A DNA stretch of 64,000 bases from Candidatus Berkelbacteria bacterium (GTDB lineage Bacteria > Patescibacteriota > UBA1384 > XYA2-FULL-43-10 > 1-14-0-10-43-13). Under the pieces are notes generated by a model. The model was not told where the DNA came from, ran no database searches, and was given only the letters and a program-made list of their open reading frames with translations. Numbering within the stretch: the first letter of the stretch is position 1; each line of letters opens with the position of its first letter. Below, piece by piece: positions 9,244 to 22,395 of the stretch. The stretch covers positions 47,186-111,185 of the forward strand of contig JBAWZC010000002.1 of the NCBI GenBank assembly GCA_037143235.1, in the 5' to 3' direction. A program made the translations under genes and the position numbers.

Positions 9244-9507
9244 TTATAGTCCAGTAAAAGGATTGGTCCGTCCTACGCCTTCTGTAGGCGCAGCCAATGG
9301 CATACCCACCAAATTCTGCCTGCCAGTCATAATTTTATCAACTTGCGTCTTGTAGCTGTTTATATCAATAGTTGCGTAATCATCAGATGCAGGAGTCACT
9401 TCGGAAACCGCAATAGCATTTGACCATGACCAGAAAAACCCAATCGCCACGACGGCAACAAAAACCAAAGTAATGATTAGGGGTGTCTGCTTTTTTATAT
9501 CGTTCAT
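9244..9507 (-). CDS. small membrane protein in the pilus locus (possible PilP-like)
   Basis: 87 aa with one N-terminal TM helix. Lies between the PilO-like gene and pilB. Confidence 0.4.
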   Translation of the reverse strand: MNDIKKQTPLIITLVFVAVVAIGFFWSWSNAIAVSEVTPASDDYATIDINSYKTQVDKIMTGRQNLVGMPLAAPTEGVGRTNPFTGL

Positions 9508-9527: not shown

Positions 9528-10052
9528 TTATCTTGTGTAAGTTTTCAGCCCAATCGTTGCTGACATACCGGTGTCAGTTGATGACATCGTGATATTATCG
9601 ATAGTCATAAACTTAACATCTTTTTCGATAGACTTGACCAATGCGTTGATCGCCTCGAACGAACCATTGACGGTGAAGCCAAGAGTTACGGCGTCACTTG
9701 AAGCTGTAGCATCAGCACTAGCAGTTTCGCCAGATATTTGGATGGACGGTATGACAAGCTTTTGAGCAGAAGCCAAAGCCTCAATCTCAGCAATAGTATT
9801 TTCGGTATCAGATCCCTGGGCAACCGCGACCAAAGTGTTCGTAACCAGATCTTTGTTGTTGGCAATCGCAGCCTTGGTCTGAACCAAAGAATTGTATTTA
9901 TCTTGAGCCATTTTCACTTCATCGCTAATCCGATCAATATCTGCAGCCTTTGACTTATAGCCGCCAAAGCCAGAAACATAACAGTAAGCCCATGAAGCCA
10001 CGATGATCAAGACAGCAAAGACGATCGAAAAATAAGAATTATCGCGTTTCAT
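9528..10052 (-). CDS. PilO-like pilus assembly protein
   Basis: 174 aa with N-terminal TM, a coiled-coil and a periplasmic domain. Its stop overlaps the next gene's start. Confidence 0.45.
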   Translation of the reverse strand: MKRDNSYFSIVFAVLIIVASWAYCYVSGFGGYKSKAADIDRISDEVKMAQDKYNSLVQTKAAIANNKDLVTNTLVAVAQGSDTENTIAEIEALASAQKLVIPSIQISGETASADATASSDAVTLGFTVNGSFEAINALVKSIEKDVKFMTIDNITMSSTDTGMSATIGLKTYTR

Positions 10053-14225: not shown

Positions 14226-14298
14226 CTGTCATTCCCGCGCAGGCGGGAATCTACCAAAAGGTTTACTGTTTGTGGATTCCCGCCTGCGCGGGAATGAC
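14226..14298. repeat. 73-nt palindromic element (tgtcattcccgcgcaggcgggaatc ... gattcccgcctgcgcgggaatgaca)
   Basis: Perfect 25-nt inverted arms around a 23-nt spacer. A related copy lies at 22296-22395. Confidence 0.6.
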
Positions 14299-14411: not shown

Positions 14412-15743
14412 CTATTGCCTGATCTCGTACCTTGGTTTGCCAAAAGGAATGCGATCAGGTGCGGACTGACGAGAGGTGAACATCGAAGCACTACAAACCG
14501 TATCCGCACCATAAATATCGTTGATCTTGTCCTGTGCCTTAGAAATGCCAGCTATTTTCCCCAAATCATCAAATATACTCAACTGTGAGGCTTTGCTGCT
14601 CGATAAATTAAAGAAGGAGATCGCCAGATGGATCGGCCGACTTTCAAATTTACAGTCAAGGAGAAGGTATTTCAGTTTTTCCCAAGCCGTAGCATCGTCA
14701 CAAAAAGGGACAAATTTTTTGCTGATATGAAAATTACTATGATCGAGAAATGAGATCGAGGCCATCAAGCCTCCTGCCAAAAAATTCCCCGCTCGCAGCC
14801 GATAGCTTGCTTTGAAAATTAACTTTCGCAGGATAGCCATCGCCCCTTCGCGAGTACGAAACTCTGGCGCTAGCACATGCGAGTGCCCAATCGTCTTAGT
14901 GGTCGTCAAATCCATTCGCGGAGAGCTGGTCGAATCTACCTGTGGTGAGCTTGTCGAATCCATCCATGGTGAGCCTGTCGAATCCACCTCATACCCCCGC
15001 AAACGAAAATACCAAGCCCTGCCACAATGTTTTAACCTCTGAGTCATTTCCCCCGCCGACAGATGAAATAATTGAAGCGGGGAAATTACGCCCAGACGAT
15101 TTAGCTGCGCTTCCATCCGCACATTGATACCAGTCAGATCAGTTAATTTGAGCTTGGAATAAAAATCTTCAAGTTCGTTTAATCGCACGATTGTAAAACC
15201 ATCTGGTTTTTGCCGCTCGGCTGCCATCTTGGCCAAGAATTTTGACGGACCCACGCCGACCGAGCAGCGCAAGCTATCCCCCACCTCGTCACGAATTTTT
15301 TTCTTTAATTTCGCAGCTATCTGTCTCGCCACCACTTCGTTTTGCTCGCATCGATCCAACTTCAGGGCAAATTCATCGACACTACACACCTCGAAATATG
15401 GCGTGACCGACTCGATCACCTTTTTTATCTTCTGGTGATAAGAAATATAGAGCGCTGGTCTCGCTTCGACAATTTCGATCTGTGGACAAAGCCTTTTAGC
15501 CTGTTCGTTTCGACAAATCCGCACACCCATCGCCTTGGCCTCATAGGAGGCAGCGATGATGCAACCAGATGGACCAGTGTACGGAGACACACCGATCGGC
15601 TGCCCCCTCAACTCTGGCCGAACCTGCTGTTCGACCGACGCAAAAAAAGAGTTCATATCAAGAAAAAGAGTTGAAAAATCTTTTGGTGGTTGCATAACAC
15701 CATCATACATCAAAAATCGAACAAATACCGAACATTTATCCAC
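14412..15743 (-). CDS. dinB: Y-family DNA polymerase IV (DinB/UmuC family)
   Basis: 443 aa. The N-terminal motif FLDMNSFFASVE corresponds to DinB's DMDAFFASVE, with palm/finger motifs. An in-frame 3x ~9-aa repeat insert (VDSTGSPWM-DSTSSPQV-DSTSSPRM) lies mid-protein. Confidence 0.75.
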   Translation of the reverse strand: MDKCSVFVRFLMYDGVMQPPKDFSTLFLDMNSFFASVEQQVRPELRGQPIGVSPYTGPSGCIIAASYEAKAMGVRICRNEQAKRLCPQIEIVEARPALYISYHQKIKKVIESVTPYFEVCSVDEFALKLDRCEQNEVVARQIAAKLKKKIRDEVGDSLRCSVGVGPSKFLAKMAAERQKPDGFTIVRLNELEDFYSKLKLTDLTGINVRMEAQLNRLGVISPLQLFHLSAGEMTQRLKHCGRAWYFRLRGYEVDSTGSPWMDSTSSPQVDSTSSPRMDLTTTKTIGHSHVLAPEFRTREGAMAILRKLIFKASYRLRAGNFLAGGLMASISFLDHSNFHISKKFVPFCDDATAWEKLKYLLLDCKFESRPIHLAISFFNLSSSKASQLSIFDDLGKIAGISKAQDKINDIYGADTVCSASMFTSRQSAPDRIPFGKPRYEIRQ

Positions 15744-16727: not shown

Positions 16728-16901
16728 ATGAAATACGAATTTTTAACAGTGGAAGAAACAGCGAAAATTCTCAAGGTTACTAAGATGACCATTTATCGCT
16801 ATATCAAGGCTGGCAAGCTGACGGCTTATAAAGTTGGTAAAGATTTTAGGATAAACAAAGAAGAATTTGATAAGTTTTTAAATGAAATACGAAAGGGATA
16901 A
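16728..16901 (+). CDS. excisionase-family helix-turn-helix DNA-binding protein (Xis-like)
   Basis: 57 aa: MKYEFLTVEETAKILKVTKMTIYRYIKAGKLTAYKVGKDFRINKEEFDKFL, the classic excisionase/MerR-type HTH signature. Below the 60-aa cutoff of the ORF track. Confidence 0.6.
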   Translation: MKYEFLTVEETAKILKVTKMTIYRYIKAGKLTAYKVGKDFRINKEEFDKFLNEIRKG

Positions 16902-17343: not shown

Positions 17344-17655
17344 ATGAAATCAATTATTCTTGCCAGAGTATCAACAGAAGACCAAAAAGAGGCTGGCAAT
17401 TCATTGCCCACTCAAATTAAGCGTCTGAAAGATTATTGCAAAAGAAAAGATTTGGAGGTTATCAAAAAATTCAGCTTTGACGAATCAGCCTATAAAACCA
17501 AAAGAGATAAGTTCGATCGTATTCTTGAGTATCCGAAAGGCAACAAAGTAAAGATTGCTGTTTGCTTTGATAAGGTTGATTACTTTTCTAGAGCACCTGG
17601 GGACGCTCCCCAATTAGATACGGTTTTTGCAATAAGAAAATTTCTCAGAGAATAA
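17344..17655 (+). pseudogene. serine recombinase (resolvase/invertase) N-terminal fragment, truncated
   Basis: 103 aa, MKSIILARVSTEDQ..., the catalytic Ser motif (Y/L-ARVST-x2-Q) of serine recombinases. The ORF ends after about half the catalytic domain and lacks a DNA-binding domain. Confidence 0.6.
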
Positions 17656-17674
17656 CTCGATCAGTTGACCATCA

Positions 17675-17708
17675 AAACAAACACCTCACATGTATGAGGT
17701 GTTTGTTT
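17675..17708. terminator. conserved hairpin terminator (same family as 15769, 40017, 42433)
   Basis: aaacaaacacctcacatgtatgaggtgtttgtttt with a 14-bp perfect stem. Confidence 0.6.
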
Positions 17709-17736
17709 TGGCAGAGGCAAGAGGAATCGAACCCCT
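17709..17736 (-). other. tRNA 3' fragment (T-arm + acceptor 3' strand + CCA), possibly an att-site duplication or the 3' exon of a split tRNA
   Basis: Minus strand AGGGG-TTCGATT-CCTCT-TGCCTCT-G-CCA. No contiguous D or anticodon arm upstream. Confidence 0.4.
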
Positions 17737-17777
17737 AATAAAGGTTTTGCCTGTCCTCCGTAGCATTAAATCAATTT

Positions 17778-17851
17778 TGGCAGGCCTTAGAGGAGTCGGA
17801 CCTCTGACTAAGGTTTTGGAGACCTTCGTTATACCGCTTAACTAAAGGCCT
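17778..17851 (-). tRNA. tRNA-Trp(CCA)-like, 74 nt, unusual T-loop
   Basis: Hand fold: AGGCCTT/TA/GTTA-AGCGGTA-TAAC/G/AAGGT-CTCCAAA-ACCTT/AGTC/AGAGG-TCCGACT-CCTCT/AAGGCCT/G/CCA. Anticodon CCA. The T-loop has C at position 55. Confidence 0.5.
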
Positions 17852-17880
17852 ATCAAAATTGATTTGAGAAGGAGGAGAGA

Positions 17881-17939
17881 CCTCCAGCCTACACTTCAAG
17901 CTACGGCCGGCAAGCCGTTATACCATTTAACTATACCCC
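17881..17939 (-). other. tRNA 5'-half-like sequence (acceptor + D-arm) lacking a contiguous anticodon/T arm
   Basis: Minus strand AGGGGTA-TA-GTTA-AATGGTA-TAAC-G-GCTTGCCGGCCG... The acceptor strand AGGGGTA can pair (with G-U pairs) with TGCCTCT of the fragment at 17709-17736. Confidence 0.35.
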
Positions 17940-18339
17940 TAAAGACAAGCAATAAGCTTGCAAGCAGTAAGAATTAAGCTGAATACACTTAAACACTTAC
18001 CGGATTACTTGCCACAAAGTGGCCCCTTTGGGGCTTACCAGCCTGTCTTACTTTGTTTCTTTGTGATTGGTGCGAACTTTGCAAGTTTTGCAATACTTTG
18101 GCAGTTCGATCCGCTTGATAACGTCTTGCCCCTTCATACGCTTCTCAGTATGGTAACCTCTGCTTTTGCATGTTTCACATTCCAATGTGATCAATTTTCT
18201 AGCTTCCTTGGCCATGGATTCCTTGTTTCTATTACCCCGGATTTAATCCGGCATCTATTTAATGTTTCTCTGGATCCTGAATCAAGTTCAGGATGACATA
18301 CATTTTTTTGTCCCGCATAGCCCGTAGGGCGACGTGAGA

Positions 18340-18414
18340 TGGAGCCGATGGAGGGAATCGAACCCGCAACCTTCACTTTACAAAAGTGTTGCTCTACCAT
18401 TGAGCTACATCGGC
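18340..18414 (-). tRNA. tRNA-Thr(TGT)
   Basis: GCCGATG/TA/GCTC-AATGGTA-GAGC/A/ACACT-TTTGTAA-AGTGA/AGGTT/GCGGG-TTCGATT-CCCTC/CATCGGC/T/CCA. One mismatch each in the anticodon stem and T stem. Confidence 0.6.
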
Positions 18415-19010
18415 ATTTTAAATTTTTCTATCCACCCAACAATAACCTTAAGCAAATTCTTGTCGGAATATCTCAAAGAGGCCGTCCCATACTTTGATAT
18501 TTTCTTGTAACTTCCATTTGAATGGGCGTGACAATATGTTTTGCTAAACTGGCTTGTGGGAATTTTCGTACGATCAGACCAATATTTTTTCAGCTCTATC
18601 TCGTTTTGGTCATCGTATATATGAAGCAATAACCTAAGCCTCTGCTCCGACACTCCACATATCTCTCTCAAAAAACGAAGGAAATAACTCACCATATTAG
18701 GATCACTGTTGCTAAAAACAACACTATTGCCGTCTTTCGTGCCCTCGCCCCAGTACAGCATAACTCCAGCTATGCGCAAAACCTCTTGTTCTGGAGTTAA
18801 ATTTGTCAACACATTGCAAGAGTGTCTTCCAAATTTTGTTTCATGCAACAATCGACTTGCACTACTGTGATCCCTTCTGGGAACATTGCCAGCTATCAGC
18901 ACCTGATTTATACGAGACGATCCGATTCCAATTTTATCAGAAATTTGCTTGACTGAAAAACCAGACTGGTACATTTCAACGATTAATTTTGTTTCATGCA
19001 TACTTAACAT
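18405..19010 (-). CDS. HTH-domain protein, possible degenerate LAGLIDADG-type homing endonuclease
   Basis: 201 aa with an N-terminal HTH (FSVKQISDKIGIGSSRINQVL). MLYWGEGTKDGNSVVF resembles a LAGLIDADG/GDG motif. It sits between tRNA genes and its 5' end overlaps tRNA-Thr by 10 nt. Confidence 0.4.
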   Translation of the reverse strand: MLSMHETKLIVEMYQSGFSVKQISDKIGIGSSRINQVLIAGNVPRRDHSSASRLLHETKFGRHSCNVLTNLTPEQEVLRIAGVMLYWGEGTKDGNSVVFSNSDPNMVSYFLRFLREICGVSEQRLRLLLHIYDDQNEIELKKYWSDRTKIPTSQFSKTYCHAHSNGSYKKISKYGTASLRYSDKNLLKVIVGWIEKFKMPM

Positions 19011-22295: not shown

Positions 22296-22395
22296 TATTC
22301 TCCTTGTCATTCCCGCGCAGGCGGGAATCTACAAATAGTTGTATTATTCTGGATTCCTGCCGGAGTTTATCCTGAACTCGTTTCAGGGCAGGAAT
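22296..22395. repeat. palindromic element related to the one at 14226-14298
   Basis: Left arm tgtcattcccgcgcaggcgggaatctac. Right arm attcctgccggag...cagggcaggaatgacaa. Confidence 0.5.

Follow-up and report, generated by a model that had tools for sequence, protein, structure and literature searches.

A tRNA-Trp gene nested within the pieces of a second tRNA-Trp gene in a Berkelbacteria genome and its relatives

We analyzed a 64,000-nucleotide (nt) stretch of DNA (hereafter the window) from Candidatus Berkelbacteria bacterium (assembly GCA_037143235.1, contig JBAWZC010000002.1, positions 47,186 to 111,185), in which a complete tRNA-Trp gene lies between the pieces of a second, outer tRNA gene on the minus strand. 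In the best explanation, to which we assign a probability of about 0.7, the outer pieces are what survives of the resident tRNA-Trp gene, into which a horizontally spreading cassette with palindromic flanks and the working tRNA-Trp was inserted at anticodon position 34/35. The initial annotation of this DNA had offered several options, namely a tRNA interrupted by an intron or an insertion, a permuted or trans-spliced arrangement, and an integration scar. Homology to intact genes bears out an insertion carrying a complete tRNA-Trp in a rearranged locus. Beyond this, we found that the outer gene, too, is a tRNA-Trp and that the inner tRNA is surrounded by a leader-trailer helix of 12 bp with two additional helices. 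A text search of the literature returned no description of nested tRNA genes.

All pieces of the locus (17940-17673) read on the minus strand. Outer piece 1 (17916..17940), read directly, comprises the acceptor 5′ strand, the D arm, and G26 (AGGGGTATAGTTAAATGGTATAACG), i.e. tRNA positions 1-26, spelled AGGGGTA-TA-GTTA-AATGGTA-TAAC-G. The acceptor and D arm annotated initially are thus present, with their start at 17940 and not at 17939. Next comes an insertion of 31 nt (17885..17915; from the minimum free energy fold and an inverted-repeat search), which separates outer positions 26 and 27. The first 16 nt of this insertion (GCTTGCCGGCCGTAGC) repeat the right linker described below in inverted and diverged form and pair with it; locus comparison did not find the insertion at the other nested loci. 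Outer piece 2 (17877..17884, GAGGTCTC) holds positions 27-34, consisting of the anticodon-stem 5′ strand with C32, U33, and C34. These are the positions that had seemed absent when no anticodon stem could be closed in the initial annotation, and the outer gene is therefore in three pieces, not two.

The main insertion, 127 nt long (17750..17876; boundaries from comparison with the intact genes of relatives L023 and L031 and with the nested loci of L018, L029, and L035), divides the outer anticodon CCA, leaving C34 at 17877 and C35 at 17749. It holds, in order, a left linker, a leader arm (AAATCAATTTTG, 17854..17865), an AT spacer (17853-17852), the complete 74-nt tRNA-Trp(CCA) (17778..17851), a trailer arm (CAAAATTGATTT, 17768..17779) starting at C75-A76 of the CCA of the inner tRNA, and the right linker (GCTACGGAGGACAGG, 17750..17764). 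The latter, read directly and by locus comparison, pairs with 17915-17900; its motif CGG(N)GG(A)CAGG adjoins outer C35 and is common to the window, L018, L029, and L035. Outer piece 3 (17709..17749) provides positions 35-76 (CAAAACCTT TATT AGGGGTTCGATTCCTCT TGCCTCT G CCA), in continuous reading CAAAACCTT-TATT-AGGGG-TTCGATT-CCTCT-TGCCTCT-G-CCA. The part from AGGGG onward (17736-17709) had been annotated correctly, and homology reaches farther 5′, to 17749 (CAAAACCTTTATT...). Right after the outer CCA lies a stem-loop made up of an A-tract, a hairpin, and a T-tract (17673..17710), a 16-bp perfect inverted repeat; the same style of hairpin stands 3′ of tRNA-Trp in all relatives. It is presumed to be the terminator of the whole unit. 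A simple terminator scan did not flag the hairpin at 17710-17673.

The outer pieces are homologous to intact tRNA-Trp genes. The two large pieces share 62 of 66 positions (94% identity) with the uninterrupted tRNA-Trp of L023-L028 and L030 (AGGGCCATAGTTAAATGGTATAACGAGGGTCTCCAAAACCTTTATTAGGGGTTCGATTCCTCTTGGCCCTGCCA) and 61/66 with the intact gene of L031. Compared with L023, piece 1 is identical at 23/25 and piece 3 at 39/41 positions, and the acceptor stem accounts for all four differences. Piece 2 (GAGGTCTC) matches positions 27-34 of L031 and of the outer gene of L035 exactly. When the three pieces were joined in silico, ARAGORN called a tRNA-Trp(CCA); joining pieces 1 and 3 directly, without piece 2, gave no ARAGORN tRNA-Trp call. 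The outer gene also has A1-U72 and G73. Its acceptor strands pair at 7/7 positions with the wobbles G3-U70 and U6-G67, in agreement with the G-U-containing complementarity described initially, and both wobbles stem from C-to-T changes. Since G3-U70 marks alanine, being an established alanine identity determinant, a working tRNA-Trp should not tolerate it.

The outer gene was not recovered as a canonical tRNA by standard searches. Rfam scans covered 17500-18500 at E ≤ 10 and the whole window at E ≤ 0.5. The tRNA model matched only 17851-17781, the best covariance score for the outer flanks was 10.8 bits (E = 2.1), and ARAGORN in default mode called no outer tRNA. A 7-nt anticodon loop could not be found in the outer gene, and the sole loop that ARAGORN could be forced to report, CC-GAG-GA, lacks U33. 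According to the initial annotation, covariance models calling only the inner tRNA would have marked the flanking pieces as noise. The models do call the inner tRNA alone; nonetheless, despite the low covariance-model scores, homology to intact genes shows the flanks to be true tRNA-Trp remnants and not chance resemblances.

The inner gene (17851-17778) was called as tRNA-Trp(CCA) by ARAGORN and scored 63.4 bits against an Rfam cutoff of 29, confirming its initial annotation as complete. No other tRNA-Trp was called in the window, and the whole-window Rfam scan returned six ordinary tRNAs only. Across the seven nested loci described below, its stems are 97-100% paired and show compensatory double changes. 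Presumably, it is the working tRNA-Trp. Its T loop, UCCGACU, has C at position 55 and not the near-universal U55 (the pseudouridine site). This T loop was also observed in tRNA-Trp of L010, L016, L001, L011, L018, and L035, as well as in tRNA-Val(GAC) of L012-L017. In L010 and L016, the UCCGACU tRNA-Trp is the only one found at the equivalent rpmG locus.

The nested arrangement recurs. Orthologous loci in Berkelbacteria-like bacteria of the candidate phyla radiation (CPR) were reached via homologues of ribosomal protein L33, whose gene rpmG (18048..18215, minus strand) is the conserved upstream neighbor in the window. The conserved order at these loci is tRNA-Thr(GGT), tRNA-Tyr, tRNA-Thr(TGT), rpmG, and tRNA-Trp; the contigs of L032 and L034 stop before this tRNA cluster. 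Nesting downstream of rpmG was found in seven lineages, i.e. in the window and in six others from independent assemblies: (i) L018, the nearest relative of the window at this locus; (ii) L029; (iii) L001 (identical to L003, L004, and L009); (iv) L011 (identical to L019); (v) L020/L021; and (vi) L035 (Berkelbacteria GCA_002773985.1). The insert measures 127-166 nt, and its junction after C34 and before C35 is identical in the window, L018, L029, and L035. Close relatives, e.g. L023-L028 and L030, carry an uninterrupted tRNA-Trp. In the 297 nt that precede the tRNA, the filled locus of L029 and the uninterrupted one of L023 are 97% identical, and both encode the same L33 protein (96% identity at the nucleotide level).

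The outer gene has decayed in these relatives. Only 5/7 acceptor pairs form in L018, the outer gene of L011 is without G18, and most of the outer T arm is lost in L001, L011, and L020. Small GC-rich palindromes occur in the outer D or T loop of L001, L011, L018, L029, and L035. The window copy is the best preserved among the nested loci, with all seven acceptor pairs formed and both the D and the T arm intact; judging from its relatives, it has probably lost its function as well. The nearest PSP1/RicT match to the window lineage other than itself is 61% identical, and an exact-protein lookup of the window L33 gave no match. Decay of the window's outer copy is not traceable at short distance, because there is no close database relative.

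The GC-rich palindromes (e.g. TCCGCCAGCTGGCGGA, GGCGAGATCTCGCC, and CCCGCCGCTCGCGAGCAGCGGG) are inserted in, or replace, D-loop/D-arm or T-arm regions. They were located in dead tRNA-Trp pieces at L001 2705-2738, L011 ~700-745, L018 ~372-405 and ~578-594, L029 368-392, L035 ~9476-9505, L008 711-732, and L020 ~1885-1908. Some are accompanied by short target duplications (ATAGT in L008).

A second feature shared by all seven lineages is the pairing of the inner tRNA's flanks. Every inner tRNA is preceded by ...TG-AT and followed, after C-CA, by a trailer arm that is the reverse complement of the leader arm. Pairing extends over 8-12 bp, and the arms differ in sequence between loci: AAATCAATTTTG/CAAAATTGATTT in the window (12 bp), CAATTAATTTTG/CAAAATTAATTG in L018, TACAATCTTG/CAAGATTGTA in L029, CTCTCACCTTG/CAAGGTGAGAG in L020, and AACTGTTTTTG/CAAAAACAGTT in L035. 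Across the seven loci, the helix is 94% paired, and both sides have changed in 10 of the 12 pairs. When helix and inner cloverleaf were evaluated together, none of 500 shuffles reached the observed values, and slid registers gave 38-51% pairing. For the helix alone at six loci, pairing was 93% (32-47% in slid registers) with double changes in 9/12 pairs; 0/500 shuffles reached the observed value on four of five measures, and 19/500 did so for the count of pair types. Of the 70 distinct tRNA contexts at these loci, only the eight nested ones showed at least 8 bp of such pairing, and the other 62 reached at most 5 bp. In the window, the stem is extended by two helices, CCGTAGC/GCTACGG and GCTTGCC/GG-A-CAGGC (GCTTGCC/GGACAGGC), whose 5′ strands both fall in the 31-nt insertion.

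The helix is without any G-U pair, and its single internal mismatch is A-C. Furthermore, removal of inner nt 1-74 leaves a palindrome X-TGATCA-X′, which is perfect everywhere except in L001 (one mismatch). For these two reasons, the arms appear to be kept or made at the DNA level. They may derive from a palindromic element with the tRNA at its center or, alternatively, from a trailer copied by fold-back priming at the CCA end. A role of the helix as an RNA processing stem is uncertain.

Allele comparisons point to transfer between lineages. The window and L018 share only 67% nucleotide identity in L33 (43/55 amino acids), and their inner tRNAs are identical at 73 of 74 positions. The inner tRNA of L029 agrees with the tRNA-Trp of its near relative L023 at 68/74 positions and is closest to that of the distant L031 (71/74). 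From these incongruences, the inner gene looks horizontally acquired. Allele roles are also swapped: AGGGGTA, the outer acceptor of the window, recurs in L020 and L035 as the acceptor of the inner tRNA. Finally, L029 and L023 are perfectly identical from position 44 to the CCA and match poorly just 5′ of position 44, a pattern that would fit a crossover inside the tRNA half, with incoming DNA bearing the outer remnants of an earlier host. The incongruent alleles, the role swaps, and this crossover pattern together suggest that the dead halves may serve as homology arms for transfer.

We propose the following sequence of events. A short non-coding cassette, in which a second complete tRNA-Trp from another lineage lay within inverted-repeat arms, would have split the anticodon of the resident tRNA-Trp gene between C34 and C35. 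In a later step, the 31-nt inverted copy of the right linker would have been added between positions 26 and 27. The inner gene would now supply tRNA-Trp. The whole unit is probably made as one transcript that ends at the hairpin 17710-17673 and would fold as an extended, interrupted helix capped by the inner cloverleaf; ordinary tRNA end-processing may then cut out the inner tRNA, and the outer pieces would be discarded. The cassette family would be mobile between genomes, most plausibly by homologous recombination via the flanking tRNA-Trp halves, possibly stimulated by the endonuclease genes of the tRNA cluster.

Several observations weigh against this scenario. The outer pieces of the window are nearly intact, the insert contains no open reading frame (ORF), and we found no enzyme or mechanism for movement of the cassette. 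L029 and L023 differ downstream of the tRNA too and thus do not form a clean pair of filled and empty sites. The absence of G-U pairs fits a DNA-level palindrome better than long-term compensation at the RNA level. Instead of being transferred repeatedly, the nested unit may also have arisen once in the distant past and been inherited vertically, with later allele conversion.

A more far-reaching version, which we put forward only tentatively and against the odds, regards the cassette as an undescribed non-coding selfish element. Such a tRNA-replacement cassette, with a complete tRNA-Trp at the center of a palindrome, would home into position 34/35 across CPR lineages, kill the host copy, supply its own, and carry the dead halves as homology arms. 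The covarying palindrome would be needed either to free the tRNA from the composite transcript or for mobility, with a hairpin or fold-back form of the DNA as intermediate. Terminal inverted repeats bound the insert, as expected of foldback or miniature inverted-repeat transposable elements (MITEs), and equivalent arms are found in all seven loci. No target-site duplication is evident at 34/35, and there is no transposase among the neighboring ORFs, to which the transposase search was confined. Copies of the cassette were found in seven lineages and only at tRNA-Trp, in scans that used the inner T-arm and right-linker patterns.

The best-surviving rival to an interrupted resident gene, still unlikely in our judgment, supposes two unrelated scars around a tRNA-Trp that has always been resident. 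The 5′ fragment would have been duplicated, e.g. by a mobile endonuclease ORF since deleted, the 3′ piece displaced separately by integration at the tRNA, and the leader-trailer pairing acquired later. Relatives show fragments of both kinds. An 83-amino-acid GIY-YIG ORF and a ~19-nt duplicate of the tRNA-Trp 5′ end lie upstream of the intact gene in L008 (695-1023) and are missing from L005 (2740-2760). L33 proteins and flanks of the two are identical, a clear case of a mobile ORF that is present or absent at one and the same tRNA gene. Two extra 5′ fragments of tRNA-Thr(GGT) stand upstream of that gene in L016 (4449-4468 and 4615-4634), and another tRNA-Trp 3′ end, together with a separate hairpin, occurs downstream of the nested unit in L001 (3890-3917, ~1 kb away) and L035 (~9825-9845, ~150 nt away). 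Such displaced fragments point to successive insertion events at the tRNA genes concerned. Moreover, the outer 5′ and 3′ pieces of L018 belong to different alleles (AAGGTCA vs. TGCCCCT). Against this rival, the window's outer pieces pair at 7/7 positions and meet exactly at 34/35 without overlap, and this junction and the right-linker motif recur in four lineages. Arms in the same register at 7/7 nested loci and at none of the 62 other tRNA contexts are not predicted by independent scars. As for the integration scar proposed initially, the 3′ piece, running from the anticodon loop, does resemble a displaced tRNA 3′ end, but the window has no second copy of this segment. The adjacent serine recombinase gene is truncated and lies outside the 3′ repeat. 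Serial 3′ repeats do occur in L001 and L035.

Alternatively, the outer shell itself could be functional, either as a processing or insulation scaffold that would ensure proper folding and release of the inner tRNA, comparable to the leader-trailer stems of rRNA operons with RNase III, or as a two-piece tRNA-like RNA left after excision. The specific and covarying leader-trailer helix, the right linker conserved in four lineages, and a shell that folds as a long coaxial interrupted helix in all loci (z = −2.2 against shuffles for the window) would suit such a role. We nevertheless consider it very unlikely: beyond the arms, the shell is very different even between the window and L018, its tRNA-like parts decay, and the composition of the helix suggests DNA-level copying.

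Splicing of the outer gene is highly improbable. On this account, the outer gene would be an intron-containing tRNA-Trp, processed by a degenerate self-splicing intron or an archaeal-type endonuclease, and the cell would make both nested and host tRNA-Trp. Precise excision of 17915-17885 and 17876-17750 does yield a tRNA-Trp accepted by ARAGORN, the last base of the insert is G (17750), and position 34/35 adjoins the 35/36 site of group I introns in Patescibacteria (PMC13011429). The spliceable intron considered in the initial annotation is nevertheless not supported. Intron_gpI gave no match at E ≤ 10 in 17500-18500 or at E ≤ 0.5 in the whole window, nor did any group II model of Rfam, and the 5′ exon ends in C34 (17877) and not in U. 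The part of the insert that is not tRNA amounts to ~25-55 nt in L020 and L029, far below ribozyme size. Sequence inspection and predicted folds showed no archaeal-type bulge-helix-bulge with 3-4-3 geometry at either junction; the folds instead contain a 5-bp stem, then a 1-nt bulge or 2 × 1 loop, then a 7-bp helix, and at the inner tRNA a 2 × 2 loop separates the arms from the acceptor stem. In its default intron mode, ARAGORN reported nothing beyond the inner tRNA. At the six other loci, no excision restores the outer gene, and in the window G3-U70 would mis-specify the product as alanine tRNA.

An assembly artefact, in which two tRNA-Trp alleles from co-occurring strains were joined, can practically be dismissed: the window does come from a metagenome-assembled genome and tRNA repeats can mis-assemble, but the same architecture appears in independent NCBI, JGI, ENA, and Logan assemblies made with different assemblers, identical copies come from the separate samples L001, L003, L004, and L009, and a chimera does not produce complementary arms.

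Further identities were tried and rejected. The permuted or trans-spliced gene envisaged initially does not agree with pieces in the normal order 1-26, 27-34, 35-76 on a single strand. A transfer-messenger RNA (tmRNA), possibly in two pieces, was considered on account of G3-U70, the long helix in place of the anticodon arm, and a possible short ORF. ARAGORN with option -m found none in any nested locus, the shell is tRNA-Trp by homology, and the sole Rfam trace was cyano_tmRNA on the flank T arm (10.8 bits against a cutoff of 70). A tRNA-Ala(GGC) with an intron ('CCGGCCG' as anticodon loop) was discarded since intact relatives show the tRNA-Trp origin. When overlaps were allowed, ARAGORN could be forced into intron calls, namely tRNA-Ala(CGC) in L029 and, in the window, a tRNA-Leu(GAG) that lacks U33; these mutually inconsistent calls are artefacts. 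A phage or viral origin was rejected after scans of viral contigs, in which the inner T arm plus acceptor had no match and the right-linker motif had 58 matches, approximately the number estimated by chance, none of them associated with a tRNA. The serine recombinase was also rejected as the responsible enzyme, being absent beside the nested loci with listed neighbors (L001, L020, L029, and L035).

The surroundings of the locus are rich in mobile DNA. ORFs of GIY-YIG, PD-(D/E)XK, and HTH/LAGLIDADG-like type vary in presence among the clusters of the relatives, and the gene order 3′ of tRNA-Trp differs in most of them. In the window, secE-nusG, the usual neighbors of rpmG and tRNA-Trp, are absent. 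Instead, a truncated serine recombinase of 103 amino acids with the Resolvase N-terminal domain only (17344-17655, plus strand) converges on the hairpin of the nested tRNA. It is accompanied by an HTH_17 excisionase-like ORF (16728-16901, plus strand) and a DinB/ImpB polymerase with an internal short repeat, STSSPQVD/STSSPRMD (14412-15743, minus strand); this stretch may be a degraded mobile element. On the other side, a 201-amino-acid ORF (18405-19010, minus strand) combines an N-terminal helix-turn-helix with a LAGLIDADG-like core (LYWGEGTK...FSNSDP), and its reading frame stops within the 5′ end of tRNA-Thr(TGT) (18340-18414). A homologue (38% over 77 amino acids) is similarly placed before tRNA-Trp in L007 and L002, whose tRNA-Trp is a chimera of two allele types. 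The ORF is probably a free-standing homing endonuclease; the LAGLIDADG assignment has weak support, coming from Pfam LAGLIDADG_3 at E = 0.002 for the L007 ORF only.

Other repeats were observed in the same region. The spacer between rpmG and the tRNA (~17945-18045, minus strand) contains a long imperfect hairpin (gtaagc...cttactgcttgcaagcttattgctt), which is recognizable in L018, L031, and L033 and may act as terminator, leader, or promoter region. A palindrome resembling repetitive extragenic palindromic (REP) sequences, TCCCGCGCAGGCGGGA, is present in three intergenic copies in the window (14233-14248, 14278-14293, and 22311-22326), and another, cctgaacttgattcaggatcc, lies upstream of rpmG at ~18270-18290 and also occurs in L018.

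For the window alone, the functional consequence is probably ordinary, namely one working tRNA-Trp and a pseudogene. If the cassette reading is true, an essential single-copy tRNA gene would have been overwritten by a tiny protein-free element bringing its own replacement, gene replacement would proceed through nesting rather than allelic exchange, and the CPR tRNA-Trp gene would be a recurrent landing site. The covarying helix offers a testable handle on either tRNA precursor processing in reduced genomes or hairpin-based DNA insertion. The tRNA halves are also an annotation hazard, as intron-aware finders can report them as spurious tRNAs with introns, which happened here with Leu(GAG) and Ala(CGC).

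Compared with known systems, the locus shares features with several and coincides with none. Inverted-repeat ends and the small GC-rich palindromes nearby and elsewhere in the window recall MITEs, foldback elements, and REP-like palindromes; those do not have a functional tRNA at the dyad center, and the nested units differ further in lacking a clear target-site duplication or identified transposase and in being seen only at tRNA-Trp. Williams, in 2002, is said to have distinguished anticodon-loop and T-loop sublocations of integration into tRNA genes. Like such attL/attR scars, the locus has a 3′ fragment displaced from the anticodon loop, serial 3′ ends (L001 and L035), a synteny break exactly at the tRNA, and a recombinase fragment next door. 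Unlike them, it has an insert of 127-166 nt without integrase or cargo, a 5′ fragment left behind as well, and inverted-repeat arms, and its working gene is a whole tRNA within the insert, not a hybrid of resident 5′ and element 3′ parts. Free-standing homing-endonuclease cassettes are established in tRNA clusters, e.g. phage T4 SegB; the mobile endonuclease-like ORFs and duplicated tRNA fragments of the rpmG/tRNA cluster are comparable, whereas the nested cassette codes for no protein and an endonuclease would have to act in trans.

Among RNA-level systems, archaeal split and multi-intron tRNA genes are known from Nanoarchaeum (split tRNAs) and the Thermoproteales. Here, too, complementary flanks could hold the halves together, and the outer gene is in three pieces; however, the host is a bacterium, there is no bulge-helix-bulge, the pieces are contiguous and ordered, and a redundant complete gene lies inside. 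The leader-trailer stems and intervening sequences of rRNA operons are cut by RNase III. As in those stems, a stable RNA sits within a long helix of its own 5′ and 3′ flanks, but a single tRNA is enclosed, by a predicted helix of 8-12 bp (up to ~26 bp with the outer helices). Position 34/35 is the classical site of the cyanobacterial tRNA-Leu group I intron. In Patescibacteria, group I introns were described in tRNA anticodon loops at 35/36 (PMC13011429). The cassette resembles them as a CPR tRNA anticodon-loop insertion, at 34/35, missed by standard annotation, and differs from them in that it has no ribozyme core, no Rfam match, and no U at the 5′ junction, carries a tRNA inside, and is accompanied by decay of the host tRNA in sister lineages. 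We classify the nested unit as kin to two groups, tRNA-targeted insertions that restore their target and palindromic non-autonomous elements.

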